The position numbers and the translations under genes are program-made. DNA of 64,000 bases from Leptonemataceae bacterium. Its GTDB lineage: Bacteria; Spirochaetota; Leptospiria; Leptospirales; Leptonemataceae. Of the stretch, positions 12,297 to 27,775 are shown one piece after another. The notes under the pieces are model-generated. The model ran no database searches. It was not told where the DNA came from and was given only the letters and a program-made list of their open reading frames with translations. The stretch is taken from assembly GCA_965227295.1 (NCBI GenBank), contig OZ245742.1:768001-832000 (forward strand), in the 5' to 3' direction. How positions within the stretch are numbered: position 1 is the first letter of the stretch; every line of letters begins with the position of its first letter.

Positions 12297-12426
12297 GGGG
12301 ATGGACCGTTTCGCTTCGTCTTTACAAAATTGTATCACCGGTATTCCCCACGCGTGTGGGGATGGACCGACGTAGGCTATATCCCCGAGGACGTCGTCGA
12401 GGTATTCCTCACGCACGTGGGAATCC
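12297..12426 (+). CRISPR. Type I-E array 0 (remnant: half repeat, full repeat, degenerate terminal repeat; 2 spacers)
   Basis: GGGGATGGACCG at 12297-12308, full repeat at 12341, degenerate repeat at 12402. Confidence 0.85.
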
Positions 12427-12556
12427 TCTAATATTCATTGGAGTGCGATTAGCAGCCACAGCCAGATAGAACGTCACCGATCTGGAGGACACCCGACTCA
12501 TTCTTCCTTTTCCTCGTTGACTTGACATGCGGTAAAATACTAAACAGGTTGTTAGA
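12427..12556 (+). promoter_or_regulatory. CRISPR leader, type A
   Basis: Near-identical to 16562-16693; ends TTGAC...TACTAAACAGGTTGTTAGA. Confidence 0.85.
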
Positions 12557-13073
12557 GTATTCCCCACGCACGTGGGGATGGACCGTCGAGGCCGACTTGC
12601 GCGTCAGGTTCGGCGATGTATTCCCCACGCACGTGGGGATGGACCGAACGCAGCGCCCGCTTCCCGGGCATTACCAAGGTATTCCCCACGCACGTGGGGA
12701 TGGACCGGTGAGTACGGAAAAGAGTACAAAGACCAGGAGGTATTCCCCACGCACGTGGGGATGGACCCAATTCTGCTCGCCGGGACGCGGTTGTGTCCTG
12801 GTATTCCCCACGCACGTGGGGATGGACCGCCGCGTATAGGTGCTTCAACTGATCCCCGATCGTATTCCCCACGCACGTGGGGATGGACCGCCTTCAGGCC
12901 CATTCCGCCGTTGATTGCATCCGTATTCCCCACGCACGTGGGGATGGACCGGTGAACCTGAACCCGGTAGAGGCTGTCCGCCGGTATTCCCCACGCACGT
13001 GGGGATGGACCGTTTCCAACGAGCGTTTGAACGAAGTCGATATCGTATTCCCCACGCACGTGGGGATCTATCG
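12557..13073 (+). CRISPR. Type I-E array 1: 9 repeats, 8 spacers
   Basis: GTATTCCCCACGCACGTGGGGATGGACCG at a 61-bp period; last repeat degenerate. Confidence 0.98.
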
Positions 13074-13204
13074 CTAATATTTATTGGAGTTTGATTAGCA
13101 ACCTCATTCAGATAGGAACGCGTCACCTATCCGGCGGACATCCGAATCATCGTTCCTTTCCTTGTTGACTCGCAATGCGGGAAAATACTAAACAGGTTGT
13201 TAGG
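13074..13204 (+). promoter_or_regulatory. CRISPR leader, type B
   Basis: Highly similar to 15791-15922. Confidence 0.85.
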
Positions 13205-14332
13205 GTATTCCCCACACGCGTGGGGATGGACCGCCGTAGTGCCGAGAAGAATTGCGGACGAAAGAGTATTCCCCACACGCGTGGGGATGAACCGGGGAGC
13301 TGACGCTCCGCAACCCGTCCGAAGAGAGTATTCCCCACACGCGTGGGGATGGACCGACTGGTGGTAGGACTAATTTATTAATAACTCAGTATTCCCCACA
13401 CGCGTGGGGATGGACCGACAGTGGCGGGGCCACGACTTCGGCCCCGAACGTATTCCCCACACGCGTGGGGATGGACCGGGGTCAGATTACAGGTCAATTC
13501 AGGGGTCGCCGTATTCCCCACACGCGTGGGGATGGACCGATCACACCCTCTATTTGCGGCTGGCTCGTGAGGTATTCCCCACACGCGTGGGGATGGACCG
13601 TGGGTCAGCATGGCTGAGATCTTTTTGAGCCTGTATTCCCCACACGCGTGGGGATGGACCGGACGTGGGTGAGATGGTGGAACCACTCAACGCGTATTCC
13701 CCACACGCGTGGGGATGGACCGGTTCACAGCCTCGCCTCGCAAACATCTTTCGCGTATTCCCCACACGCGTGGGGATGGACCTGCTCTACAAGACTCCGC
13801 GTGTGCTCATCCAGCGTATTCCCCACACGCGTGGGGATGGACCGAAACACGCCGCCGAGAAGCAACGCCGCGCCTAGTATTCCCCACACGCGTGGGGATG
13901 GACCGCAGGGTGAAGCGGACTTCACTGAAGAACCACGGTATTCCCCACACGCGTGGGGATGGACCGCGAAGGCGCTCGCTCATTCTTGTTCTTGCGGCGT
14001 ATTCCCCACACGCGTGGGGATGGACCGGGCGGAAGCGTGATCGTCGGCAGGTTGCGCGGGTATTCCCCACACGCGTGGGGATGGACCGATCGTGTAGAGC
14101 AGCCCGTTTTGTGACGGTGTGTATTCCCCACACGCGTGGGGATGGACCGACAAGGTCTGCGACGGCGATCGTCTTCGGACCGTATTCCCCACGCGCGTGG
14201 GGATGGACCGAAAGAAGTGAAGGTTAGAACATCCGGGGATAGGCATTCCCCACGCATGTGGGGATCGACCGGCTCGATCCATAGCGCGCAGACATGCCAT
14301 GTCGCATTCCCCACACGCGTAGGGATCTCCCC
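13205..14332 (+). CRISPR. Type I-E array 2: 19 repeats, 18 spacers
   Basis: GTATTCCCCACACGCGTGGGGATGGACCG; degenerates at the 3' end. Confidence 0.98.
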
Positions 14333-14488
14333 TTCTCCCACTAAAGTACTACAAAACCAACCTAAGACCCCGCAATGACCGACCATCCAATCCAATAACC
14401 CCTCATAAATGCCCCGGAAAACCAGGGTCTCCACTCAAACCCACTCAAGGCCGCCAACTCCCGCACCGAAGACAAAACGAGGCCACAC

Positions 14489-15367
14489 ATGAACCGGGAC
14501 TTACAGGAAATACCGCGCTTCGATCATAACTGGTCGTTTCTATATTTCGAAAAAGGTCGCATCCAACAAGAACTGCAAACCGTTGCATACTGCTATCTCG
14601 AAAAGAAGATCCCCGTTCCCATCGAAACGTTGTCGCTGCTCATGCTCGGCCCCGGCACCAGCATCACGCACGAGGCCGTCAAACGCATCGCCGATTCCCG
14701 CTGCCTGCTCGCCTGGGTCGGCGAAGAAGGCATTCGATTCTATGCCGGCGGTTCTCCCGGAACGTACTCCTCGCGCCATCTGTTGCAACAGGTCTACAGC
14801 TACGCGAACGACATCGAGCGCATGAAGATCGTCCGGCGCATGTATCAGATGCGCTTCGATGAAGTCGTCGACACGAACGTTACCCTCGAACAACTCCGCG
14901 GCATGGAAGGCGCACGCGTACGCAAAGCCTACGCGGCCGCCGCCGAAGAATTCGGCGTCGAGTGGACCGGACGCAGTTACGACCAGAACGATTGGCGCGC
15001 CGGTGATCCGGTCAACCGCGCGCTCTCGGCGGCGAACTCCTGCCTCTACGGCCTCTGCCACGCGGCGATCCTGTCGCTCGGCTGTTCCCCCGGCATCGGC
15101 TACATTCATACCGGCAAACAACTATCGTTCGTCTACGACATCGCCGATCTCTACAAAACCGAGATCACCATCCCCATCGCGTTCCAGGAAGGCCAGGCAC
15201 CGGCAGCCGTAGAATCGCGCACCCGCCACGCCTGCCGGGATCGCTTTCGCGAAACACGTCTCATCAAACGCATCATCCCCGACATCATGGAGGTTCTGTA
15301 TGGTAATCGTCGTGCTGGAGAACGCGACACCGGGACAGAGGGGCGTGATGTCGCGGTTAACTATTGA
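14489..15367 (+). CDS. cas1: Type I-E Cas1
   Basis: LMLGPGTSITHEA, QLRGMEGARVR, HTGKQLSFVYDIADLYK. Confidence 0.97.
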   Translation: MNRDLQEIPRFDHNWSFLYFEKGRIQQELQTVAYCYLEKKIPVPIETLSLLMLGPGTSITHEAVKRIADSRCLLAWVGEEGIRFYAGGSPGTYSSRHLLQQVYSYANDIERMKIVRRMYQMRFDEVVDTNVTLEQLRGMEGARVRKAYAAAAEEFGVEWTGRSYDQNDWRAGDPVNRALSAANSCLYGLCHAAILSLGCSPGIGYIHTGKQLSFVYDIADLYKTEITIPIAFQEGQAPAAVESRTRHACRDRFRETRLIKRIIPDIMEVLYGNRRAGERDTGTEGRDVAVNY

Positions 15368-15641
15368 ACTCAAGGCCGGTGTCTTTGCCGGCAATCTCAA
15401 TCGCCGCATCCGCGACAAACTCTGGGACCGCATCGTCCACAAATGGAACGCGAACGCCTTGCTGATCTACACCACGAACACCGAACAGGGCTACGCGGCC
15501 CGTTCACACGGCGACACCAGCCGCGAACTTGTCGAGATCGAAGGCATGGTTCTTACGCAGTTCACCCGGCGTAAACATCGTAAGTCGAATGATGATGATG
15601 CGGTTGATGCGGATCATGTCGGCGGGGCTGGGGGCATGTAA
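15300..15641 (+). CDS. cas2: Type I-E Cas2
   Basis: MVIVVLE...ELKAGVFAG...IRDKLW...EQGY; overlaps the cas1 3' end by 68 nt. Confidence 0.95.
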   Translation: MVIVVLENATPGQRGVMSRLTIELKAGVFAGNLNRRIRDKLWDRIVHKWNANALLIYTTNTEQGYAARSHGDTSRELVEIEGMVLTQFTRRKHRKSNDDDAVDADHVGGAGGM

Positions 15642-15700
15642 GGCGCGGTTCCTTTTGTTCGTTGACTTGTGATGTGCGAAACTACTTAACAGGTTGTGTC

Positions 15701-15790
15701 GTAGTCCCCACGCATGTGGGGATGGACCGCGCCTGCGGCCCCCACTGCCCGCCCGGACTGTGTATTCCCCACGCGTGTGGGGATCCATCG
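15701..15790 (+). CRISPR. Type I-E array 3: 2 variant repeats, 1 spacer, short leader 15642-15700
   Basis: GTAGTCCCCACGCATGTGGGGATGGACCG and GTATTCCCCACGCGTGTGGGGATCCATCG. Confidence 0.9.
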
Positions 15791-15922
15791 CTAATATTTA
15801 TTGGAGTTCGGTTAGCAACCACATTCAGATAGGAACGCGTCACCTATCCGGCGGACATTCGAAGCATTGTTCCTTTTCCTCGTTGACTTGACATGCCGGA
15901 AACTACTAAACAGGTTGTTAGA
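15791..15922 (+). promoter_or_regulatory. CRISPR leader, type B
   Basis: Paralogue of 13074-13204. Confidence 0.85.
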
Positions 15923-16561
15923 GTATTCCCCACGCACGTGGGGATGGACCGGAGTCCCCCGCCATGGGAGAAGAAGATCAGCAGTATTCCCCACGCACGT
16001 GGGGATGGACCGGAGGCGCGGGCTCAAGATGAAAGCAGAGATTGCGTATTCCCCACGCACGTGGGGATGGACCGGTCACCTGGAATTCGATCCGGCACAC
16101 ATGGGTGTATTCCCCACGCACGTGGGGATGGACCGCCGTCGGAGGTAAAGGAAGATGAAAGCTAAAGGTATTCCCCACGCACGTGGGGATGGACCGCACA
16201 CCTACATCCGCCGGTCCCTAAAGATTGAGTATTCCCCACGCACGTGGGGATGGACCGGAGCACACAAGCGCATGAGGACTCAAGAAATCGTATTCCCCAC
16301 GCACGTGGGGATGGACCGATGCGCACTCAGGTTCCATCACAATTCTCTGCGTATTCCCCACGCACGTGGGGATGGACCGGGGCCCTGCCCGGTTACGCTG
16401 GCGGGGGTGGCGTATTCCCCACGCACGTGGGGATGGACCGTCGGAGGCGCGCCCGGCGGGTTGCTATACTTGGTATTCCCCACGCTCGTGGGGATGGACC
16501 GCTGAGCGATCGGCGCTACAACGAACTCCGTAAGTATTCCCCACGCACTGTGGGAATACCG
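15923..16561 (+). CRISPR. Type I-E array 4: 11 repeats, 10 spacers
   Basis: GTATTCCCCACGCACGTGGGGATGGACCG. Confidence 0.98.
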
Positions 16562-16693
16562 CTAATATTCATTGGAGTGTGATTAGCAGCCACAGCCAGA
16601 TAGAAACGCATCACCGATCTGGAGGACACCCGACTCATTCTTCCTTTTATCCGTTGACTTGACATGCGGTAAAATACTAAACAAGTTGTTAGA
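16562..16693 (+). promoter_or_regulatory. CRISPR leader, type A
   Basis: Paralogue of 12427-12556. Confidence 0.85.
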
Positions 16694-17637
16694 GTATTCC
16701 CCACGCGTGTGGGGATCGACCGATTACGAATCCATTCGGGCCGATTTTGTCGGGGTATTCCCCACGCGTGTGGGGATCGACCGGTGGCTGCACGGAAAAT
16801 GGAAGCAGATTTACTGTATTCCCCACGCGTGTGGGGATCGACCGTGACCCTGGAGGACGGCAACGTCCACGAGGGGGTATTCCCCACGCGTGTGGGGATC
16901 GACCGTATTCTCAGGCGTCTGATTGACGTCATTTGGTGTATTCCCCACGCGTGTGGGGATCGACCGGGTTGCCTGGTAGTCGAGGATTGGGGCGGCGAGT
17001 ATTCCCCACGCGTGTGGGGATCGACCGCGCCTGGAGCCTGCCATTCGTCCACTCATCGCGTATTCCCCACGCGTGTGGGGATCGACCGCAGGCCGCTATC
17101 GATAAGGCCCGGGAAGAATCGTATTCCCCACGCGTGTGGGGATCGACCGCCCGAGAAGATCGAACATGGGTAGGGTATTGAGTATTCCCCACGCGTGTGG
17201 GGATCGACCGCTGTGGGCGCACTTCGTGATCCTCTTCTGCCAGTATTCCCCACGCGTGTGGGGATCGACCGATCCCGCTGAGCGAATACCGCGAAGCCGT
17301 TGCGTATTCCCCACGCGTGTGGGGATCGACCGCCCCGACGCAGCCTCGTTGACGGAGTGTATGGGTATTCCCCACGCGTGTGGGGATCGACCGGTGCGGT
17401 CATCGTCGAGAATGCCGGCACACAAGTATTCCCCACGCATGTGGGGATGGACCGTGCTACCACGGGGACGGCGGTCGCGATCTTCAGTATTCCCCACGCA
17501 CGTGGGGATGGACCGCCGATTTTCGTGATGATTTCATGTTCCTTTAAGTATTCCCCACGCGCGTGGGGATGGACCGCCCCGAGACCCGGCTTCCACGCTC
17601 CAGGGTGAGTATTCCCCACGCGTGTGGGGATTAGCCG
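16694..17637 (+). CRISPR. Type I-E array 5: 16 repeats, 15 spacers
   Basis: GTATTCCCCACGCGTGTGGGGATCGACCG; distal repeats switch to ATGGACCG. Confidence 0.98.
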
Positions 17638-17784
17638 CTAATAAACATTTAGGAGTTGTTAGTATCGTTGATCTTCGATGCGCCTCTTGCAAAACAACAC
17701 GTCTCCTGATTGGTAGACATGCGAAGCACGACTCCTATTAATCGTTGACTTGCAATGCGCAAAAATACTAAACAGGTCGTTAGA
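17638..17784 (+). promoter_or_regulatory. CRISPR leader, type C (divergent)
   Basis: Starts CTAATA, ends GTTGACTTGCAATGCGCAAAAATACTAAACAGGTCGTTAGA. Confidence 0.8.
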
Positions 17785-18300
17785 GTATTCCCCGCGTATG
17801 CGGGGATGGACCGGTCGGGCGGGAGAAGAGCTACCACGCCGTCTTGTATTCCCCGCGTATGCGGGGATGGACCCAGCCGAACCCTACTACAGGCACTGGC
17901 GGAATCGTATTCCCCGCATACGCGGGGATGGACCGCCGTCGCGCCCGGACAGCCCGTTCGTGTCCGCGTATTCCCCGCATACGCGGGGATGGACCGCTGC
18001 TGACCAATTGATTGTCACTGTAGGCCAGTATTCCCCGCATACGCGGGGATGGACCGTCCACGGCCTCGCCGAGCTTCGGATTGTACGGGTATTCCCCGCG
18101 TACGCGGGGATGGACCGTGGACACCCTGGATCGGAACTTTGAGCTGGCGGTATTCCCCGCATACGCGGGGATGGACCGAACCAGTCACGCCGGAGGAGTA
18201 ACCAGAAAACGTATTCCCCGCGCATGCGGGGATAGACCGTCGATTTCGTCGTCTACGCCTTCGCCCTGGACGTATTCCCCGCGCATGCGGGGATCGGCCG
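17785..18300 (+). CRISPR. Type I-E array 6: 9 repeats, 8 spacers
   Basis: GTATTCCCCGC(GTAT/ATAC)GCGGGGATGGACCG. Confidence 0.97.
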
Positions 18301-18486: not shown

Positions 18487-21477
18487 GTGCTCACCTACAA
18501 CCAGTACTGGGGCAAAGCCCGCCCGTCTTCGAAACAGAAGGCCTCATACCACCTCCTCCCCCACCACTCCCTCGACGTGGCCGCATGCGGCGCGGTGCTC
18601 CTCGAACAGCGCCCGCGCCTCCTCGAACTCCTCGTCCACCAGAGCGATCTCCCCGCAAACGTCATCCGCGAACTAATCCCATACTATCTAACCATACACG
18701 ACCTCGGCAAATTCGCCCTCCCCTTCCAGGCCCTGGCACCGGATACGCTGCAAACCCTGAGCAATCGACAAACCGACCGCAAATACACCGTCCGCCACGA
18801 CCACCTCGGCTTTCTCGTCTGGCGCAAACGAATCCGCAAACTACAGCTCGCTAACTGGCAGCAAAAAGAAGTCTGCACCGCAGAAAACGCAAGCATCCTG
18901 CGCAACATCATAGACCCCGCCGTCATCGCGGTCACCGGCCACCACGGCCGCCCGTCGAACTACCCGCACAATTCTCAGGGGGAAGCATTCCTCGAAGACC
19001 ACTTCACCACCGAAGACATCGAGGCCGCCCTCGCATTCACCCTCGCCGCGTCCGACCTGCACCTCGACGCCACATACGAATACTTCCGAACAACGCTGCG
19101 CAACCACGCATCACAACCCGAAGCCATCCAACGCCGACACCGGCGACTCTCGCACTGGATCGCCGGCCTCGGTGTGCTGTGCGATTGGCTCGGCTCCCAG
19201 GCCGACGCATACTTTCCCTACAACGCGCAGGCCGCGTCATCTCTCGCCGAATACTATCACGAAGACGCCCTGCCCCGCGCCCGTGATGCCGTCCCGCACG
19301 CCGGCCTCGCCCCGGCTCCGGCGCGCGCGCTCACTTCGTTTGCGTACCTGTTTCCCGCGCTCCGGCGCCCCACCCCGCTCCAGCACGCTGCCGAAACCAT
19401 CCCGCTCCCCGCGGAACCGCAGCTCTTCGTCATCGAGGACAGCACCGGCTCCGGCAAAACCGAAGCGGCCGGCATGTTCATCCATCGCCTGCTCGCCGCC
19501 GGACTGGCCGACGGCCTGTACTTTGCCCTGCCCACCACCGCCACGGCCGATGCCATGTACACGCGCTTTACCGGCGCCGACGAATCCCTGCATAGTTTCT
19601 ATCGCAAGCTGTTTGCCGATGAAAGTTACCCGTCGATCGTCCTGGCACATAGCTGGAGTCGCCTGCATTCGGGCTTTCTCAGAACGATCATCACCCCGCC
19701 GGAGAATCTGCTCGCCGACCAGGGCGAAACCTACGGTGCCGACGACACCGGCGCCACGGCGTTCTGCAACATCTGGTTCACCGACCAGCGTAAGAAGGCG
19801 CTCCTGGCCGACGCCGGCATCGGCACCGTCGACCAGGCGTTGCTCGCCGTCCTGCAGGCGAAGCACCACGCCCTCCGTCTCATCGGACTCACCCGCAAGG
19901 TCCTCATCGTCGACGAGGTCCACGCCTACGATCCGTACATGCACCACACGCTCCGTCGACTGCTCCACTTTCACGGAGCCGGCGGAGGATCGGCCATCCT
20001 GCTCTCGGCCACCCTGCCCGCCCGCGACCGGAACGAGTTAATTGAAAGCTATCAAAGCGGACTGCGCATCTACCAGGAACTTCCGGAGCAGGAAGATGAT
20101 CCCGCCGATCCGCAAGACGATGCGGCCACCGCCGCTAAACATCCGGCGAGCGTACCTTACCCGCTGCTCACGCGGGCCGGCGCGTCCGGAATTCGCGAGT
20201 ATGCCGTAGAAACCACGTCGCGCAGTCGCCGCCGCGTGCGCATCAGGCGTATCCCCAATGCCGACGCGGCGCTCGATCACGTCCTCGAACAGGCCGCCCA
20301 GGGCAAATGCGTCTGCTGGATACGCAACACCGTCAACGACGCCATCGAAGCCTACGAACAACTACGCGCCCGCACGGAAAGAGCCGCACACACCACGGCC
20401 TTCCATACACCACCGGACATCCTCTTTCACGCGCGCTTCGCTCTCGGCGATCGACTCGCGATCGAACGCCGGGTCCTGGCATCCTTCGGCAAGACGAGCA
20501 CGGCCACAGCACGCCGCGGACGCATCGTCATCGCCACGCCCGTGGTCGAACAATCCCTCGATCTCGACTTCGACGTCCTGCTTTCCGATCTCGCGCCCAT
20601 CGATCTACTATTACAACGCCTCGGCCGCTTGCGCCGGCACCAACGCGACGCAGGCGGCAACCCACTCGCCACGGACAGCGACGACGGTCGCGGCGAAATC
20701 GAGTTCGCCGTGGTATCACCCGACCCGATCGACGAACCGTCGCCCGCATGGTACAAAGCCGACTTTCCCCGCGCCGAATACGTGTATCGCGACACGGGCC
20801 GCTTATGGCTCTCCGCCCGCGCCCTCTTCGAGCGCGGCGAACTACACATGCCGGACGATTCGCGTGCGCTCATCGAAGAAGTCTACGGACCCGGATCGCA
20901 CGAACGCATCCCGCCAGGCTTACGTGCGGCATCCGAAAAGGTACGCGGCAAAGCCGCCGCGGATCGCAGCACGGCCGATCACAATACCCTCGATCTGGAT
21001 ACCGGCTACAAAGTTGCGTACGGCGAAACTTACGCGGACGACTACCGCTCCCCCTCGCGTCTCGGCGAACCCACCGTGCGACTCTACCTCGCGCGCTACG
21101 ACAGCAAACAGCGGCGCCTGGCACCGTGGATTCAACCGGAAGCAGTGGATGATTCACAAACAACACAGCAAGATGCGGCAACCCAACAACGCCTCGCCGC
21201 GCTCCATGCGTGGGAGTTGAGCACGGTAACGGTGGCCACCCGCAAAATCGCCGGCCAGGCGCAGCCGGAACATCCCGAACATGCGCAGGCCCTGGCCGCG
21301 TGGAAAGAGTCCCGCCCGGATCGCGGTCGCTACAGCCCGGTCATTCTTCTTGAACCCGATGTCGCCACAAATCCCACCGCGGACCCGACCGGCGAATGGA
21401 CCGGCCAGGCCCGCAATGAAAAAGGCAGCCTGGTCCAGGTCCGCTACTCGGCGGAACTGGGGCTGCGGGTAGATTGA
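18487..21477 (+). CDS. cas3: Cas3 HD nuclease-helicase
   Basis: YWGKA, HSLDVAA, HDLGK, TGSGKTEA, DEVHAYD, LSATLP, QRLGRLRRH. Confidence 0.97.
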   Translation: MLTYNQYWGKARPSSKQKASYHLLPHHSLDVAACGAVLLEQRPRLLELLVHQSDLPANVIRELIPYYLTIHDLGKFALPFQALAPDTLQTLSNRQTDRKYTVRHDHLGFLVWRKRIRKLQLANWQQKEVCTAENASILRNIIDPAVIAVTGHHGRPSNYPHNSQGEAFLEDHFTTEDIEAALAFTLAASDLHLDATYEYFRTTLRNHASQPEAIQRRHRRLSHWIAGLGVLCDWLGSQADAYFPYNAQAASSLAEYYHEDALPRARDAVPHAGLAPAPARALTSFAYLFPALRRPTPLQHAAETIPLPAEPQLFVIEDSTGSGKTEAAGMFIHRLLAAGLADGLYFALPTTATADAMYTRFTGADESLHSFYRKLFADESYPSIVLAHSWSRLHSGFLRTIITPPENLLADQGETYGADDTGATAFCNIWFTDQRKKALLADAGIGTVDQALLAVLQAKHHALRLIGLTRKVLIVDEVHAYDPYMHHTLRRLLHFHGAGGGSAILLSATLPARDRNELIESYQSGLRIYQELPEQEDDPADPQDDAATAAKHPASVPYPLLTRAGASGIREYAVETTSRSRRRVRIRRIPNADAALDHVLEQAAQGKCVCWIRNTVNDAIEAYEQLRARTERAAHTTAFHTPPDILFHARFALGDRLAIERRVLASFGKTSTATARRGRIVIATPVVEQSLDLDFDVLLSDLAPIDLLLQRLGRLRRHQRDAGGNPLATDSDDGRGEIEFAVVSPDPIDEPSPAWYKADFPRAEYVYRDTGRLWLSARALFERGELHMPDDSRALIEEVYGPGSHERIPPGLRAASEKVRGKAAADRSTADHNTLDLDTGYKVAYGETYADDYRSPSRLGEPTVRLYLARYDSKQRRLAPWIQPEAVDDSQTTQQDAATQQRLAALHAWELSTVTVATRKIAGQAQPEHPEHAQALAAWKESRPDRGRYSPVILLEPDVATNPTADPTGEWTGQARNEKGSLVQVRYSAELGLRVD

Positions 21478-21565
21478 TCCCCACTTACGTGGGGAAGGAA
21501 AACGCACACGGAACACGTATGCGGAACATTCCCGGTGGATTCCCGAGAATGGACATGTTTTCTCG
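21471..21565. repeat. CRISPR repeat-like mini-array (pseudo-repeat, 33-nt pseudo-spacer, partial pseudo-repeat)
   Basis: Stem CCCCAC-TTAC-GTGGGG at 21479-21494; minus strand reads ...GGGAATCCACCG [33 nt] TCCTTCCCCACGTAAGTGGGGATCAATCT. Confidence 0.65.
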
Positions 21566-21642
21566 ACCAGGCCCAAAGCTCAATTCATCGTCCTTGGGCA
21601 CGTCCTTCATTACACAGAACACATATGCTTTGATTTTTTTCA

Positions 21643-21671
21643 TTGACATTGCCGACAAGGCGGGTTAATAT
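21643..21671 (+). promoter_or_regulatory. Sigma70-type promoter upstream of the small ORF and Cascade operon
   Basis: TTGACA-17 bp-TAATAT with an AT tract upstream. Confidence 0.75.
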
Positions 21672-21699
21672 CCCCGAAAGAACCGACAAGGAGCGCTCC

Positions 21700-21825
21700 A
21701 TGAAAATCGAATCCGATGTATATTCCTTAGTAAGGCTTCCGGAACGAGGAATTATTCTCATCATTAGACAAAATCAGATAGTAGTGCTAAGGGACTATCG
21801 TATCGTGCGCCACATTAACCTGTAG
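21700..21825 (+). CDS. 41-aa small ORF ahead of cas8e
   Basis: AAGGAG RBS at 21688-21693, ATG at 21700, AT-rich; stops 6 nt before the cas8e GTG. Confidence 0.55.
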   Translation: MKIESDVYSLVRLPERGIILIIRQNQIVVLRDYRIVRHINL

Positions 21826-21831
21826 TCGACC

Positions 21832-23508
21832 GTGTCCCAACTATCCTTCCACTTACTCGATGACCCCTGGCTCCCCGTCCGCCGCAGCAGCGGCGCCGAG
21901 ACCTGGATCACCCCCGCGGACATCACGTCCAATCCCGGCAATGATCCGGTCGTCGCCCTGGCGAGTCCGCGGCCGGACTTCGACGGCGCGCTGCTACAGT
22001 TTCTAATCGCACTGCTGCAATCCACCTGTGCGCCGACGTCATCCCAGGAGTGGCTCAAACGATTCGTAGATCCGCCCTCCCCCGGTGAACTACGAGAACT
22101 CTTCGCCGTAGACGAATCAGCCTTTGCCTTCGCGGGCGAAAAACTACCCTCGCGCTTCTTACAAGACGTCGAACTCGCCTTCGATCCCGACGACGCCGTG
22201 CCCATCGCCGGCCTGCTCATTGATTCCCCGGGCGCGAAGACCCTCAAGGACAACGCCGATCATTTCGTAAAGCGCGACCGCGTGAACGGACTGTGCGCGG
22301 CCTGCACAGCGACAGCCCTGTTCACGTTGCAAACGAACGCACCCTCCGGCGGCGTCGGCCATCGCACCTCACTGCGCGGCGGCGGACCACTGACGACTCT
22401 GCTCACTCTCGATCCGGCAACGACCTTACCGAACACACAGCGCCCCACACTCTGGCACGATCTCTGGTTGAACGTCCTGCCGCTGGCCCCCAGGGATGCG
22501 GGCCGGCGCACATCCAAAACGAAACGCGCAGACATCTATCCCTGGCTCGCTCCCACGCGCACCAGCGACAAGAGCGGCGTGCTCACCACGCCCGATGATG
22601 TCCACGCTCTACAAATGTACTGGAACATGCCCCGGCGCATCGTCTTCGATCCGGAGACGACGCCCGGCGATTGCGATCTCTGCGGGCGCAAAGATGAACT
22701 CTATACACGTTACGCGACGAAAAACTACGGCACGAACTACAGCGAAGGTTTTCGACATCCGCTCAGCCCGCACTACAAAGACGAGAAGACCGGCGCCACA
22801 TCACCCCTGCACCCCCAGCCGGGCGGCATGACGTATCGCTACTGGCTGCGACTCATGCTTCCGACAAAAGAAGCCAACAATCTGCCCGCGCATGTCGTCA
22901 CGGCCTTCGAAGGCCGGCGGCAGGACGGTGATCTGGAGGACATAGACGATCTCGATTATCTGCTCTACGCCTTCGGCTACGACATGGACAACATGAAAGC
23001 CCGCGCATACTACGAGGCGCGCATGCCGGTCCTGTTTGTATCCAAAGACGTTCGTGAAGTATTCGCGCGTCTGGTCGCGGACATGTTGAACGGAGCGAAT
23101 CAGTTCGCCGGCAATACCCGCAACGCCGTAAAGCAGGCCTGGTTTCGCCGGCCCCAGGACGTCCGCGGCAATGCCGACTTCATTCGCGATGAATTCATCC
23201 AGGCTACCGAAACCGGATTCTACGATCATCTCCACCGGCTGAAGCAGCAGGGCGAAGATGGCCGAACGGTCCTCACGGAATGGCACGCGCATCTACATCG
23301 CGCGTCTCTCGCGACGTTTCACAAATACGCTCCGCCGCCCCAGGCCCGCTCCCGGCACATGCAGCGCTACGTCGAAGCGATCCGCTTTCTCTTGATGTGC
23401 AACTATTCGAAGAAGCTCAAAAACTTGCTCAACGTTCCCGAGAAAAAGTTCGTCCCACCGGAGGACGCAATCGAAGGCATCGCACGGGAGGACGCATTAC
23501 ATGCATAA
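21832..23508 (+). CDS. casA: Cascade large subunit Cas8e/Cse1
   Basis: LLDDPWLPV, RPDF, NADHFVKR, APSGGVGHRTSLRGGGPLTTL, WNMPRRI. Confidence 0.95.
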   Translation: MSQLSFHLLDDPWLPVRRSSGAETWITPADITSNPGNDPVVALASPRPDFDGALLQFLIALLQSTCAPTSSQEWLKRFVDPPSPGELRELFAVDESAFAFAGEKLPSRFLQDVELAFDPDDAVPIAGLLIDSPGAKTLKDNADHFVKRDRVNGLCAACTATALFTLQTNAPSGGVGHRTSLRGGGPLTTLLTLDPATTLPNTQRPTLWHDLWLNVLPLAPRDAGRRTSKTKRADIYPWLAPTRTSDKSGVLTTPDDVHALQMYWNMPRRIVFDPETTPGDCDLCGRKDELYTRYATKNYGTNYSEGFRHPLSPHYKDEKTGATSPLHPQPGGMTYRYWLRLMLPTKEANNLPAHVVTAFEGRRQDGDLEDIDDLDYLLYAFGYDMDNMKARAYYEARMPVLFVSKDVREVFARLVADMLNGANQFAGNTRNAVKQAWFRRPQDVRGNADFIRDEFIQATETGFYDHLHRLKQQGEDGRTVLTEWHAHLHRASLATFHKYAPPPQARSRHMQRYVEAIRFLLMCNYSKKLKNLLNVPEKKFVPPEDAIEGIAREDALHA

Positions 23509-24133
23509 CGACAACCCATTCGAACGCCTGGAGGTCGCCAGGCAATTCGCCGGGCTGCTTGAGCGCGTCAACGAATCACGCGGTGATCGTGCGATGCTCC
23601 GGCGCTGTCGCGATCCGCACGAAGTTCTCGGCACGCGCATGTTCGCGGAATACTCGCGCCGTCTTCTCGGCAAGGAATTCCCGGAACTCATCAACAATCC
23701 CCCCGAGGACCACCAGCTCGGCATGGCCGCCGCTATCGGCCTGCTGGGTCATGTACGCCGAAACCGTGTCGTTCGGTTTTCGTACGCTGTGGACTTTCGC
23801 TCCCGCTTCGCCGCACAGTTAGGGAAAGGACCGGAAGATTCACGACCACGCCTGAGCGAATTGCGTTTCCGCCGTCTGGTAGCCTGCCAGGACCGCATCA
23901 CCCTCTATCCTCAAATCATTCGCGCCATCCATCAACTCGGCGATAGCGTCGACCTCGTCAGTCTCGCCGGGGCCCTGTACGACTGGCGACCGGGTGCGAC
24001 CGGTGATCCGCTGCGGCGACGCTGGTCATACGCATACTACAGTACCTTCACCGAAAACTATCCCACATCCTTCCAGGAAGGCAGCCCCGGACCTGCCGGA
24101 AATACAACGGACTCAACGGAGAACACCGAATGA
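23501..24133 (+). CDS. casB: Cascade small subunit Cse2/Cas11
   Basis: RGDRAMLRRC, LSELRFRRL, RRWSYAYY. Confidence 0.93.
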   Translation: MHNDNPFERLEVARQFAGLLERVNESRGDRAMLRRCRDPHEVLGTRMFAEYSRRLLGKEFPELINNPPEDHQLGMAAAIGLLGHVRRNRVVRFSYAVDFRSRFAAQLGKGPEDSRPRLSELRFRRLVACQDRITLYPQIIRAIHQLGDSVDLVSLAGALYDWRPGATGDPLRRRWSYAYYSTFTENYPTSFQEGSPGPAGNTTDSTENTE

Positions 24134-25257
24134 AACGCTTCTTACAACTACACATCCTCACGAGCTATCCGCCATCGAACGTCAACCGTGACGATCTCGG
24201 CCGGCCGAAGACCGCCGTAATGGGCGGCCGGGAGCGGTTACGCATATCCTCACAAAGCCTCAAGCGCGCGTGGCGGACCTCGGAAGTCTTCGAAGCGGCG
24301 GTCGCGCAGGAGCATCGCGGTGTGCGCACGAAAGAACTCGGCAAGCAGGTATACTCTAAGCTTCTCGAAGAAGGCGTCAAAGAAAAGGACGCGCGCGAGT
24401 GGGCCCGAGACGTCGCCGGAGTATTCGGAAAGCTGCGTAAGCCCGCGGAATCGAAAAAGTCAAAGAAAGACGATTCCGAAAAAACGAGCCAGCGCAAAGA
24501 ACTACAGGACCTGGAGATCGAACAACTGGTGCACGTCGGCCAACCCGAACTGGACGCCATCGCGGAACTCATCAACGAATTGGTGAAGCGCGGCAAAGGA
24601 CCGACGGACGAAGACCTCGAGTTACTGCGCAAAGAGACCCACGCCGCGGACATCGCCCTCTTCGGACGCATGCTGGCATCCTCGCCTAACTACAACGTCG
24701 AAGCGGCGGCCCAGGTCGCCCACGCGCTCACCGTGCATTCGGTCGCCGTCGAGGACGACTTCTTCTCCGCGGTCGATGATTTGAATCGCGGCGACGAAGA
24801 CAGAGGCGCCGGCCACCTCGGCAGCACCGAATTCGCGGCGGGTCTGTTCTATCTCTACATCTGCATCGATCGCAATCTATTGCAAGACAACCTGCGCAAC
24901 GACGGCCAGGTAGACCCCACCGCTGCGGAACAGGCCATCCGCGGCCTCGTCGAAGCCGCCGCCACGATTCCGCCCGGCGGCAAACAGAACTCGTTCGGCA
25001 GCCGCGTCTACGCCTCGCGTGTGCTCGCCGAAAAAGGCGACGGCCAGCCGCGCTCGCTATCGGTGGCGTATCTTCGTCCCGTAAACGAGGCGGCCCATAA
25101 CGAAGATCTTCTCGCCGACGCAATACAGGCCATGGACCAAACGCGAGAAGATTTCGAACGCGCCTACGGACCTACCACCGCCGCACCCTACAATCTCGAC
25201 GTGCCCGGCCGCAAAGGTACGCTCGCCGAACTCTTAGACTATTGCGTAAGCGAATGA
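24130..25257 (+). CDS. casC: Cas7/Cse4
   Basis: YPPSNVNRDDLGRPKT, RISSQSLKRAWR, DIALFGRMLA. Confidence 0.97.
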   Translation: MKRFLQLHILTSYPPSNVNRDDLGRPKTAVMGGRERLRISSQSLKRAWRTSEVFEAAVAQEHRGVRTKELGKQVYSKLLEEGVKEKDAREWARDVAGVFGKLRKPAESKKSKKDDSEKTSQRKELQDLEIEQLVHVGQPELDAIAELINELVKRGKGPTDEDLELLRKETHAADIALFGRMLASSPNYNVEAAAQVAHALTVHSVAVEDDFFSAVDDLNRGDEDRGAGHLGSTEFAAGLFYLYICIDRNLLQDNLRNDGQVDPTAAEQAIRGLVEAAATIPPGGKQNSFGSRVYASRVLAEKGDGQPRSLSVAYLRPVNEAAHNEDLLADAIQAMDQTREDFERAYGPTTAAPYNLDVPGRKGTLAELLDYCVSE

Positions 25258-25276
25258 GCACAGCAGACGATCATCG

Positions 25277-26059
25277 ATGAGCAAGAACCGCGCATATCTA
25301 CTCTTTCGTCTCTATGGACCGCTCGCCTCGTTCGGAGACACGGCCGTCGGAGAGTACCGTCCGACCTACGACCGCCCCTCGAAGTCCGCGGTGCTGGGCC
25401 TCGTCGCGGCGGCGCTGGGCATCCGTCGCGACGAGATCGGTGTTCACGAAAGCCTGGAGCGACAGTTAGGCTTCGGCGTGCGGGTGGAATCCGCCGGCAT
25501 GTTGATGCGTGACTTTCACACCAGCCAGGTCCCGCCGGCACGACTGCATCGCATCTATCCCACGCGACGCACAGAGTTGCTTTCATCGGATCTTACAACC
25601 ATCCTGTCCACGCGCGACTATCGCTGCGACGCGCTGTATCACGTCGCACTCTGGCACGTGCCCGGCCAGACGAAAAAACTCGTGGCATCACTCGAAGACA
25701 TTCAGCAAGCGTTACGGCAACCGAAGTTTACACTCTATCTCGGACGCAAATCATGTCCGCTCGCCTTCCCGCTCGCTCCGCAACTCGTCGAAGCACGCAA
25801 TCTTCGATCGGCTTTCCACAATGCCGGGACAAAGAATACGGCGGACTCCGCACAAGAACAGCTCCTGCAGCAATTGAAGCGCGGTCTGCGCATTCGCAAT
25901 AGCGAACGAGCACGAATCTATTGGGAAGGCGACGACTCGGGTTTCCAGGCGCATACCGCGGCACAGCGCCGCGACCGCGTCACGAATCGACAACGCCAGC
26001 AGTTCGGCAACCGCACGGAGTACCAGGGCCTCGACGACACCGCAGGGGACGCAGACTGA
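25277..26059 (+). CDS. casD: Cas5e
   Basis: LYGPLASFG, PSKSAVLGLVAAALG, LYLGRKSCP. Confidence 0.96.
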   Translation: MSKNRAYLLFRLYGPLASFGDTAVGEYRPTYDRPSKSAVLGLVAAALGIRRDEIGVHESLERQLGFGVRVESAGMLMRDFHTSQVPPARLHRIYPTRRTELLSSDLTTILSTRDYRCDALYHVALWHVPGQTKKLVASLEDIQQALRQPKFTLYLGRKSCPLAFPLAPQLVEARNLRSAFHNAGTKNTADSAQEQLLQQLKRGLRIRNSERARIYWEGDDSGFQAHTAAQRRDRVTNRQRQQFGNRTEYQGLDDTAGDAD

Positions 26060-26748
26060 TGTACTTCAGTAAGATCGAAGTTCCGCCCCCCGGCTTCGGC
26101 CGTCCTCTGCCGTTGGGAGATCCCTACAGCGTCCACCAATCGATGTGGGCCCTCTTCCCCGAAGATCCCAATGCGCAGCGCGATTTTCTGTATCGCCAGT
26201 TGGATGATTCCGCGCGATCTTTTTACGTAGTCTCCGCACGTCGCCCGCAAGCTACCAGCGCACTCCCGTGGCAGATCCGCACAAAACAATACGATCCTCG
26301 CGTCTCGTCCGGACAACGACTCTGGTTCGAAGTCCGCGTCAATCCCACGGTGACACGCTCAGACGGCAGCCGACAACAGCGCCACGACTACGTCATCGAT
26401 TACAAAAAACGCCTGGAAAGCACGGCCGAAGCCGAACTCCCGTCCCCCGGCCGATTGCTACACGACGCCGCGTGTGAGTGGTTGGACAAACGCTGTGAGT
26501 CTCACGGCTTTACGTTCGAATCGCACGCGCTACGCGTACAAGATCGCGATTATCTTAAGTTTAAGAAGGGCTCAGCTTCGCCCGAAGTCACCATCGGCAC
26601 ACTCGATCTGGCCGGCCTGCTCACGGTCCAGGACCCGCAGCGCTTTCGCGAAACTCTCTATAACGGCATTGGTCGCTCTCGTAGCTTCGGCTGTGGTTTG
26701 CTGCTGGTCCGGCGTTCGGGGGGCCCGGGGATACACTCTTTACTTTAG
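26059..26748 (+). CDS. casE: Cas6e/Cse3
   Basis: Start MYFS at 26059; HQSMWALF, RDFLYR and the Gly-rich loop GIGRSRSFGCGLLL. Confidence 0.95.
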   Translation: MYFSKIEVPPPGFGRPLPLGDPYSVHQSMWALFPEDPNAQRDFLYRQLDDSARSFYVVSARRPQATSALPWQIRTKQYDPRVSSGQRLWFEVRVNPTVTRSDGSRQQRHDYVIDYKKRLESTAEAELPSPGRLLHDAACEWLDKRCESHGFTFESHALRVQDRDYLKFKKGSASPEVTIGTLDLAGLLTVQDPQRFRETLYNGIGRSRSFGCGLLLVRRSGGPGIHSLL

Positions 26749-27256: not shown

Positions 27257-27372
27257 AAGAGCATTTCGGTTTTCTCATGTTTTTCAGTGAGAAATCAATG
27301 TGTTAACTTAAAATAAAACAATATTTGTATGGGCGTTCCCCTCCGTGCTTCGCGCTCGGTGGGGAAGAGAAG

Positions 27373-27404
27373 GAAAGCCGCCCCGACAAGCGGGGCGGCT
27401 TTCC
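27373..27404 (-). terminator. Probable intrinsic terminator
   Basis: GAAAGCCGCCCC-GACAAGC-GGGGCGGCTTTC hairpin at the STAS gene end. Confidence 0.55.
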
Positions 27405-27775
27405 TACCCCTGCACGGACATCACCGCTTCTTCTTCGCTGTCATACACTGCAAAGAACGAAATCAGCTTCGTCAACGTGAGCACGTGCCGGGTGGCCGGG
27501 GAGAGACACGCCAGAGCCAGGCGGCGGTCCTTCTTGCCTAACTGCTGAGAAAATGAAATTAAGGCGCCGACGCCGCTGGAGTAGATCGTCTCGACGTTTT
27601 CCATGTTGATGACGACGTGATTATCCGAAGTTTCGAGACAATCCTGAAGGATGTCGCGCAGGGCCGGCATGTTGTAGATGTCCATGACACCCCAGACCTC
27701 GAAGATCGTGACGCCGTCCTGTTGTCGCTGCTCAATGTCCATGAGTTCGTCGATACTTCGCGCAGTAGACCGCAT
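27404..27775 (-). CDS. STAS-domain anti-sigma factor antagonist (start 27775 or 27742)
   Basis: G-x-MDIYN, VVINMENVETIYSSGVGAL. Confidence 0.85.
   Translation of the reverse strand: MRSTARSIDELMDIEQRQQDGVTIFEVWGVMDIYNMPALRDILQDCLETSDNHVVINMENVETIYSSGVGALISFSQQLGKKDRRLALACLSPATRHVLTLTKLISFFAVYDSEEEAVMSVQG

Follow-up and report, generated by a model that had tools for sequence, protein, structure and literature searches.

In type I-E CRISPR-Cas systems, reporter evidence from Salmonella supports autorepression of the Cascade operon by CreR (Liu et al., bioRxiv 10.1101/2023.03.10.532045). Mini-arrays that lie between cas3 and cas8, in opposite orientation to cas3, have been described in about 19% of bacterial I-E loci, with autorepression as their predicted role; their targets are situated in the cas8 promoter next to an AAG protospacer-adjacent motif (PAM) and carry mismatches at sixth positions (Shmakov et al., bioRxiv 10.1101/2023.03.03.530964). 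For type I-F, a target mutation at position 5 relieved repression 3.5-fold, compared to 6.0-fold and 8.4-fold for mutations at positions 1 and 10 (bioRxiv 10.1101/2024.01.05.574328). Short guides of 21 and 24 nucleotides (nt) have been published for phage-borne I-E copies. All of these sources are drawn on here for the available portions of their text. The stretch of DNA analyzed in this work, hereafter termed the window, comprises 64,000 nt of a Leptonemataceae bacterium (GenBank assembly GCA_965227295.1, contig OZ245742.1, positions 768,001 to 832,000 of the forward strand) and contains a complete type I-E CRISPR-Cas locus. Between cas3 and cas8e, at 21471-21550 on the minus strand and thus opposite to both genes, it holds a degenerate mini-CRISPR, psiR1-psiS-psiR2, with which Cascade would probably repress its own cas8e operon.

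Where the mini-array lies is read directly from the sequence and its minus-strand orientation is backed by the match to a covariance model, by fold energies and by the geometry of PAM and seed. Its architecture is that of I-E CreR genes and mini-arrays, namely two repeat-like units flanking a spacer-like stretch, inside the cas locus and outside the arrays. The first unit, psiR1 (21522..21550, minus strand), aligns to positions 1-27 of the covariance model R1 described below and is identical to the array repeat (consensus GTATTCCCCACGCACGTGGGGATGGACCG, with variants) at 15 of 29 positions in a hand count. The predicted fold of its RNA pairs 21551-21543 with 21535-21527 and includes one U-G pair that becomes a C-A mismatch if the element is read on the plus strand. 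An 8-nt 5' handle, AUGUUCCG (21529 to 21522), shares six of eight positions with the array handle AUGGACCG. The adjoining psiS (21500..21521, minus strand) is a 22-nt guide with its position 1 at 21521; the 32-nt spacers of the arrays exceed it by 10 nt, a difference that the R1 alignment shows as a 10-nt deletion against the 32-nt consensus. This guide contains a predicted internal hairpin of 8 bp (21523-21516 with 21510-21503), which is followed by UUUU and was flagged on the minus strand by a terminator scan. The second unit, psiR2 (21471..21499, minus strand), contains an intact Cas6e-type hairpin in which 21495-21489 pairs with 21484-21478, with the sequence CCCCAC-TTAC-GTGGGG at 21479-21494, and includes the cas3 stop codon TGA (21475-21477). 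The cleavage position of Cas6e in canonical I-E repeats is well established, and applying it to the R1 parse predicts a mature CRISPR RNA (crRNA)-like molecule of about 51 nt (21479..21529, minus strand), composed of the 8-nt handle, the 22-nt guide and a 21-nt 3' hairpin. On the minus strand, the RNA folds into three hairpins with -38.1 kcal/mol (z -5.9), 7 kcal/mol better than the plus-strand RNA at -30.9 kcal/mol (z -3.0).

The solitary repeat-like hairpin at the cas3 stop had already been noticed in an initial annotation of this DNA, made from the letters alone, and it is indeed present, with the 29-mer of psiR2 matching the array repeat at 20 of 29 positions in both orientations. This identity alone is not beyond chance, as places with at least 20/29 identity occur 79 times on the plus strand and nine times on the minus strand of the 5.94-Mb genome. 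At a threshold of at least 22/29, 67 places are obtained genome-wide, all of them on the plus strand and presumably array repeats. It is the exact stem together with the location, not the level of identity, that sets the hairpin apart: the stem pattern CCCCACNNNNGTGGGG is found 57 times in the window, 56 times in the arrays and once at the cas3 stop, against 0.00 in 100 shuffles, and 58 times in the genome, with no occurrence of a reversed control pattern.

For comparison with related loci, the covariance model R1 was built from elements of nine distant I-E loci, with the window excluded. It matches 21478-21551 on the minus strand over its full length (positions 1-81) with 17.8 bits and an E-value of 2e-4 in 45.6 kb, the best R1 match outside the arrays, and its alignment places AUGUUCCG on the handle of the family and the guide start at 21521. 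On the plus strand, only a partial match restricted to the hairpin is obtained (11.6 bits, E 0.017). Of 80 genome loci, 27 carry minus-strand R1 matches upstream of cas8e, as do 24 of 80 metagenome loci; the two sets overlap and share some contigs. The elements of this family run on the strand opposite to cas8e and are made up of a repeat-like unit, whose hairpin varies in sequence and whose handle is ATGAACCG, then a spacer-like stretch of either 32 nt or 20-22 nt and a second repeat-like unit, GTTCCCC...GGGGAT. Within the family, the psiR1 hairpin displays compensatory changes at five of six pairs, in an alignment that was fitted to the model, and 13 cells hold G-U or U-G pairs that would be mismatches on the other strand.

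The guide CATACGTGTTCCGTGT faces the sequence CATATGTGTTCTGTGT immediately after an AAG on the minus strand (21630 to 21628). The target site spans 21606..21630 (minus strand), of which 21630 to 21628 are the PAM and 21627 to 21606 the protospacer, and offers the canonical PAM and the partial PAM-proximal pairing seen for I-E mini-arrays. Pairing starts at guide position 1 and covers 14 of the first 16 positions (site 21627 to 21612), with none from position 17 onwards. The two mismatches lie at positions 5 and 12; position 5 is a seed position in Escherichia coli Cascade, and position 12 is a flipped one, as Cascade flips out every sixth base. Only three non-self sites in the genome match the guide at 14 or more of 16 positions, and the target, at a distance of 106 nt from the guide, is the only one of them with an AAG PAM; the other two are far away and have the PAMs CGG and ACG. 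Towards cas8e, 12 nt separate the PAM from the -35 box of a predicted sigma-70-like promoter, TTGACA-17-TAATAT (21643..21671, plus strand), which scores 10/12 and is the only promoter-like site within 21000-22300. It is this PAM-register match beside a promoter that speaks for function. Separately, the best non-self match of the guide in the genome (15/16) is found outside the window, at C1:2210272, with the PAM CGG and at the start of a minus-strand open reading frame (ORF) of 768 amino acids (aa); by our estimate, about 0.1 such sites are expected by chance.

All sequence features that the initial annotation had listed for this region are present. The 15/17 match between 21506-21522 and 21612-21628 exists, its seventeenth base arising where the final G of the handle faces that of the PAM, and the promoter indeed precedes a 41-aa ORF and cas8e. 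The caveat of imperfect seed pairing also holds, as position 5 is mismatched in the AAG register. The accompanying statement that a canonical AAG PAM is missing has to be corrected, as an AAG lies directly before the match on the minus strand. The proposed handle GGGAATCCACCG does occur on the minus strand (21544 to 21533), at the stated distance of 33 nt ahead of the repeat-like unit, and falls into the loop and the 3' arm of the psiR1 stem. It is the adjacent GGGAATGTTCCG, the next twelve bases, that would act as the handle, so that the guide measures 22 nt instead of 33 nt and AAG stands directly before the match. In the GGGAATCCACCG register, the 33-nt guide has no PAM-proximal target, with best seeds of 6/7 next to CGA or TAA. 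Registers on the plus strand provided neither a seed nor an AAG. Finally, of the two proposals of Cascade autoregulation and a toxin-antitoxin module, the first is supported by place, strand, architecture and PAM-adjacent pairing as in the 27 of 80 loci, and the second finds no support in this window.

The guides of the related elements were read from coordinates, and a target counted as strict if it was flanked by an AAG PAM and matched the whole seed (positions 1-5, 7 and 8). With this definition, 21 of 26 parsed elements have exactly one target in their locus, always 54-130 nt towards cas8e, compared to five of 642 pairs in a control that set guides against foreign loci. According to our tally, mismatches fill 34 of 42 cells at positions 6 and 12 and eight of 126 at positions 9-11 and 13-15, a concentration that is expected if the guides are read by Cascade with its flipping of every sixth base; pairing usually ends after 15-20 nt. 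Five elements lack a strict target. L054 combines a good match with the PAM AAA, L057 has an AAG with mismatches at positions 5, 6, 12 and 15, and L077 an AAG with mismatches at positions 1, 6 and 18; L005 seems to be offset by one base, and no target was found in the locus of L072. The AAG-flanked near-matches of L057 and L077 imply that imperfect seeds occur in other members of the family. As judged from our reading of coordinates, a sigma-70-like promoter that faces cas8e has a -35 box overlapping the target, or starting no more than about 20 nt from the target end that lies towards cas8e, in about 15 of 22 cases, counting the window.

Two further features of the family guides can be noted. 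A short form of the element, with R1 matches of 59-71 nt, is present in eight of the 27 loci (L009, L010, L013, L022, L033, L064, L067 and L077) and also in the window; the guides of the seven parsed short-form loci are 20-22 nt long. Additionally, the guides of the family tend to hold an internal hairpin in which the seed is paired with positions of about 15-25. A mean fold z of -1.2 was obtained for the guides of 26 loci and the window, 27 in all, and one of -0.14 for 58 ordinary spacers of the window; seven of the 27 guides reach p <=0.05 compared to 9% of the ordinary spacers, the related loci not being independent of each other.

Autorepression by Cascade carrying a crRNA-like guide is the most likely mechanism for this arrangement and, taken together with the minus-strand mini-array, a probable one. 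We infer that the element is transcribed, processed, bound by Cascade and used for repression in the following manner. Cas6e would cut the mini-array transcript into the RNA of about 51 nt with the handle AUGUUCCG and the 22-nt guide. Cascade loaded with this guide would pair at only 14 of the first 16 positions, behind the AAG and near the -35 box of the only strong promoter before cas8e, and the short guide and partial pairing would permit binding without cutting by Cas3. Residing beside its own promoter, Cascade would lower the transcription of cas8e-cse2-cas7-cas5-cas6e, and the brake would be released when ordinary crRNAs or anti-CRISPRs draw Cascade off.

Several observations weigh against a working brake, and most of them also suit its main rival, itself unlikely, in which the element is a decayed relic left by such a mini-array or by the end of an array: homology would be real, and the RNA would not be made or processed, or the seed mismatch would block useful binding. 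The window guide does not possess the intact seed (positions 1-5, 7 and 8) that defines a strict target, and the register one base over has a clean seed at the price of the PAM AAA and a poor handle. The stem of psiR1 is unusual (UUCUCGG/CCGGGAA with a 7-nt loop) in place of the CCC...GGG base of the family, so that Cas6e processing is not assured, and its handle agrees with that of the arrays at only six of eight positions. A scan for a sigma-70-like promoter of the minus-strand RNA found none at the threshold used. The R1 score of 17.8 bits is modest next to the 22-80 bits of the family, R1 is in essence a repeat-spacer-repeat model that a dead array unit would match as well, and its E-values are rough. 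An nhmmer profile of alignment A1, which comprises 24 family elements, missed the window element at E-values up to 10, yet found the arrays. No Cas8e with more than 50% identity is present in the genome and metagenome collections scanned, and the conservation in related I-E loci that the initial annotation had named as a check extends to the same kind of element in 27 of 80 loci and not to the intergenic DNA of the window, which recurs in none of 60 relatives. Nevertheless, drift is not expected to keep together an exact register of PAM and handle, pairing at 13 of 14 non-flipped positions and intact hairpins with a z of -5.9. Single seed mismatches are also found in L057 and L077, and in the available text on the I-F system the mutation at position 5 of the target relieves repression only partly, by 3.5-fold (bioRxiv 10.1101/2024.01.05.574328). 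The seed mismatch weakens the claim that the element works at full strength, not the claim of homology. A reading on the plus strand is far less probable than decay and can be given very little weight. In this reading, the cas3 mRNA would have its 3' end or terminator in the hairpins, or these would form a plus-strand crRNA-like RNA, with the 15/17 match owed to chance or duplication. The hairpin of psiR2 resembles the array repeat equally in both orientations, the plus-strand fold also beats its shuffles and R1 recognizes the hairpin on that strand; against this, no T-run follows the hairpins, the match lacks a PAM-proximal seed and an AAG in plus-strand registers, the full-length R1 match exists on the minus strand only and the minus-strand fold is the more stable by 7 kcal/mol.

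An improbable third explanation, which could coexist with autorepression, is a CRISPR-repressed toxin module of the CreTA or CrePA type, in which the promoter would chiefly serve the 41-aa ORF (21700..21825, plus strand) as the gene of a toxin set free upon loss or inhibition of Cascade. The succession of guide gene, target, -35 box, Shine-Dalgarno (SD) sequence and small ORF resembles that of CrePA in the available account of the I-F system (bioRxiv 10.1101/2024.01.05.574328). The ORF has a strong SD, AAGGAG (21688-21693), 6 nt upstream of its ATG, and includes six very rare codons (AGG twice, AGA, ATA, CTA and TTA). Here, these codons are scattered. In CreT RNAs, rare codons stand in tandem after the start. 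The codon adaptation of the ORF, measured with an index of the CAI type, is 0.425 compared to 0.64-0.73 for the cas genes. No homologue other than the ORF itself was detected among 5.8 billion proteins, and it belongs to no Pfam family. It bears no likeness to the peptide family encoded at the same place in related loci (hhalign probability 0.1%) or, by BLASTP, to the ORF of L070, and its highest 17-residue hydropathy is 1.04, compared to at least 2.0 for the peptides of related loci. An Atlas look-up that suggested a fragment of a eukaryotic beta-propeller gave features below the recognition threshold and was taken as noise. The stop codon TAG of the ORF lies 6 nt before the GTG of cas8e and in the same frame, so that TAG and two codons stand between them, and this GTG has no visible SD; translational coupling to cas8e is as likely as toxicity. 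A combination of the two is doubtful: the Cascade-repressed promoter would also drive the 41-aa ORF, whose translation would bring ribosomes to cas8e and yield a harmful peptide after loss or blocking of Cascade. Were this true, the ORF would represent a protein-based CRISPR-repressed toxin of type I-E that forms part of the Cascade operon's own leader, and the device would have its commoner form in the conserved membrane peptides of 36-45 aa that related loci (13 of 27) encode at this place.

The content of this slot in related loci is in part what favors a toxin. In a scan of the 230 nt before cas8e, ATG-initiated ORFs of 30-70 aa with a membrane-like stretch between target and cas8e were found in sense orientation in 13 of 27 loci (L003, L004, L005, L006, L017, L029, L033, L045, L051, L054, L072, L074 and L077) and in antisense orientation in none of the 27; those found are 36-56 aa long. 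Eight of the 13 align as one family with the consensus MPxLLE, a hydrophobic stretch and I-V-FK, which has only nine representatives at E 0.001 among 1.84 billion proteins; L005, the one member scanned, belongs to no Pfam family. The ORF of L074 is of a second type outside this alignment and has only a sub-threshold Pfam match. In two loci, genes of toxin-antitoxin systems lie between the target of the mini-array and cas8e: L080 carries a HicA toxin gene (L080:2281-2484, Pfam 9e-14) and L079 a HicB-like antitoxin gene (L079:2328-2501, 6e-07). This agrees with the enrichment of toxin-antitoxin genes at this place in the available part of the mini-array study, and the terms 'transmembrane', 'hydrophobic', 'peptide', 'small ORF', 'short ORF' and 'HicA' are absent from its main text (Shmakov et al., bioRxiv 10.1101/2023.03.03.530964).

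The remainder of the locus has the following layout. At 12341-18300, 65 plus-strand array repeats form several tandem arrays whose repeat variants differ slightly, and a leader-like sequence of about 160 nt is present in four copies, at 13072, 15789, 16560 and 17651. The genes cas1 (14489-15367) and cas2 (15300-15641) lie between the arrays, upstream of cas3 and not after cas6e. The gene cas3 (18487..21477, plus strand) encodes the HD nuclease and helicase (Pfam Cas3_HD 2e-34, Cas3-like_C_2 8e-34). After an intergenic region of 354 nt, with a G+C content of 41% compared to about 60-65% around it, the Cascade operon (21832..26748, plus strand) comprises cas8e (21832-23508, Pfam CRISPR_Cse1 1.5e-106), cse2 (23501-24133, Pfam CRISPR_Cse2), cas7 (24130-25257, Pfam Cas_CT1975), cas5 (25277-26059, Pfam Cas_Cas5d) and cas6e (inside the ORF 25921-26748, Pfam CRISPR_assoc), all on the plus strand. 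Positions 20800-22600 of the window are identical in contigs of two DNA runs from one study. Downstream of cas6e, there is an AT-rich stretch between two hairpins (27269-27367), the second of which (about 27335-27367) has the repeat-like ends GTTCCCC...GGGGAAG. R1 scores it weakly: under default filters it reaches 11.5 bits on the plus strand, and once the filters are switched off both strands score 7.6 bits. It could be what is left of a leader-repeat junction or a second mini-array. A strong terminator-like hairpin follows on its 3' side at about 27375-27405.

The kind of element described here, a CreR-type or crRNA-like mini-array, has already been published for type I-E, and the window contains no new system. 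It adds a further, rather divergent example of Cascade self-repression, the nearest Cas8e in the two collections searched being about 50% identical. Its value lies mainly in annotation, as it accounts for the long spacer between cas3 and cas8e, the solitary repeat and the AT-rich promoter region. The short 22-nt guide and the seed mismatch may set a weaker brake.

Set against the available portions of the published descriptions, the element combines shared and divergent traits. Like the I-E CreR of Salmonella enterica, it is a degenerate mini-CRISPR within an I-E locus whose guide partly pairs with an AAG-adjacent site upstream of casA/cas8e, and in both psiR1 best keeps the 5' handle and psiR2 the 3' hairpin (bioRxiv 10.1101/2023.03.10.532045). 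In Salmonella, 15 consecutive nt pair between guide and target, whereas 14 of 16 do so in the window, with a mismatch at a seed position; in addition, the window guide is only 22 nt long, the psiR1 stem is rebuilt and the element is known from its sequence alone. With the mini-arrays of Shmakov et al. (bioRxiv 10.1101/2023.03.03.530964), it shares the location between cas3 and cas8, the strand opposite to cas3, the AAG-adjacent downstream target at the promoter of cas8 and sixth-position mismatches. Such elements occur in 27 of 80 loci of this Cas8e clade, compared to about 19% of bacterial I-E loci in that work. There, the repeat upstream of the spacer is said to resemble the array repeat closely and the downstream one to be decayed, whereas in the window the upstream psiR1 (15/29) is the more degraded and the downstream psiR2 (20/29) keeps its hairpin. 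The I-F CrePA locus of Acinetobacter baylyi is similar in that the gap between cas3 and the cas8 homologue holds a guide gene, a target just before the -35 box, an SD and a small ORF (bioRxiv 10.1101/2024.01.05.574328). If the small leader ORFs of the present clade prove to encode toxins, the CrePA idea would extend to type I-E. As far as the CrePA account goes, CreP is a 103-aa KilAC-domain protein of demonstrated toxicity, whereas the ORF of the window, an orphan of 41 aa, shows no sign of function and, unlike its I-F counterpart, sits in the leader of the Cascade operon itself.

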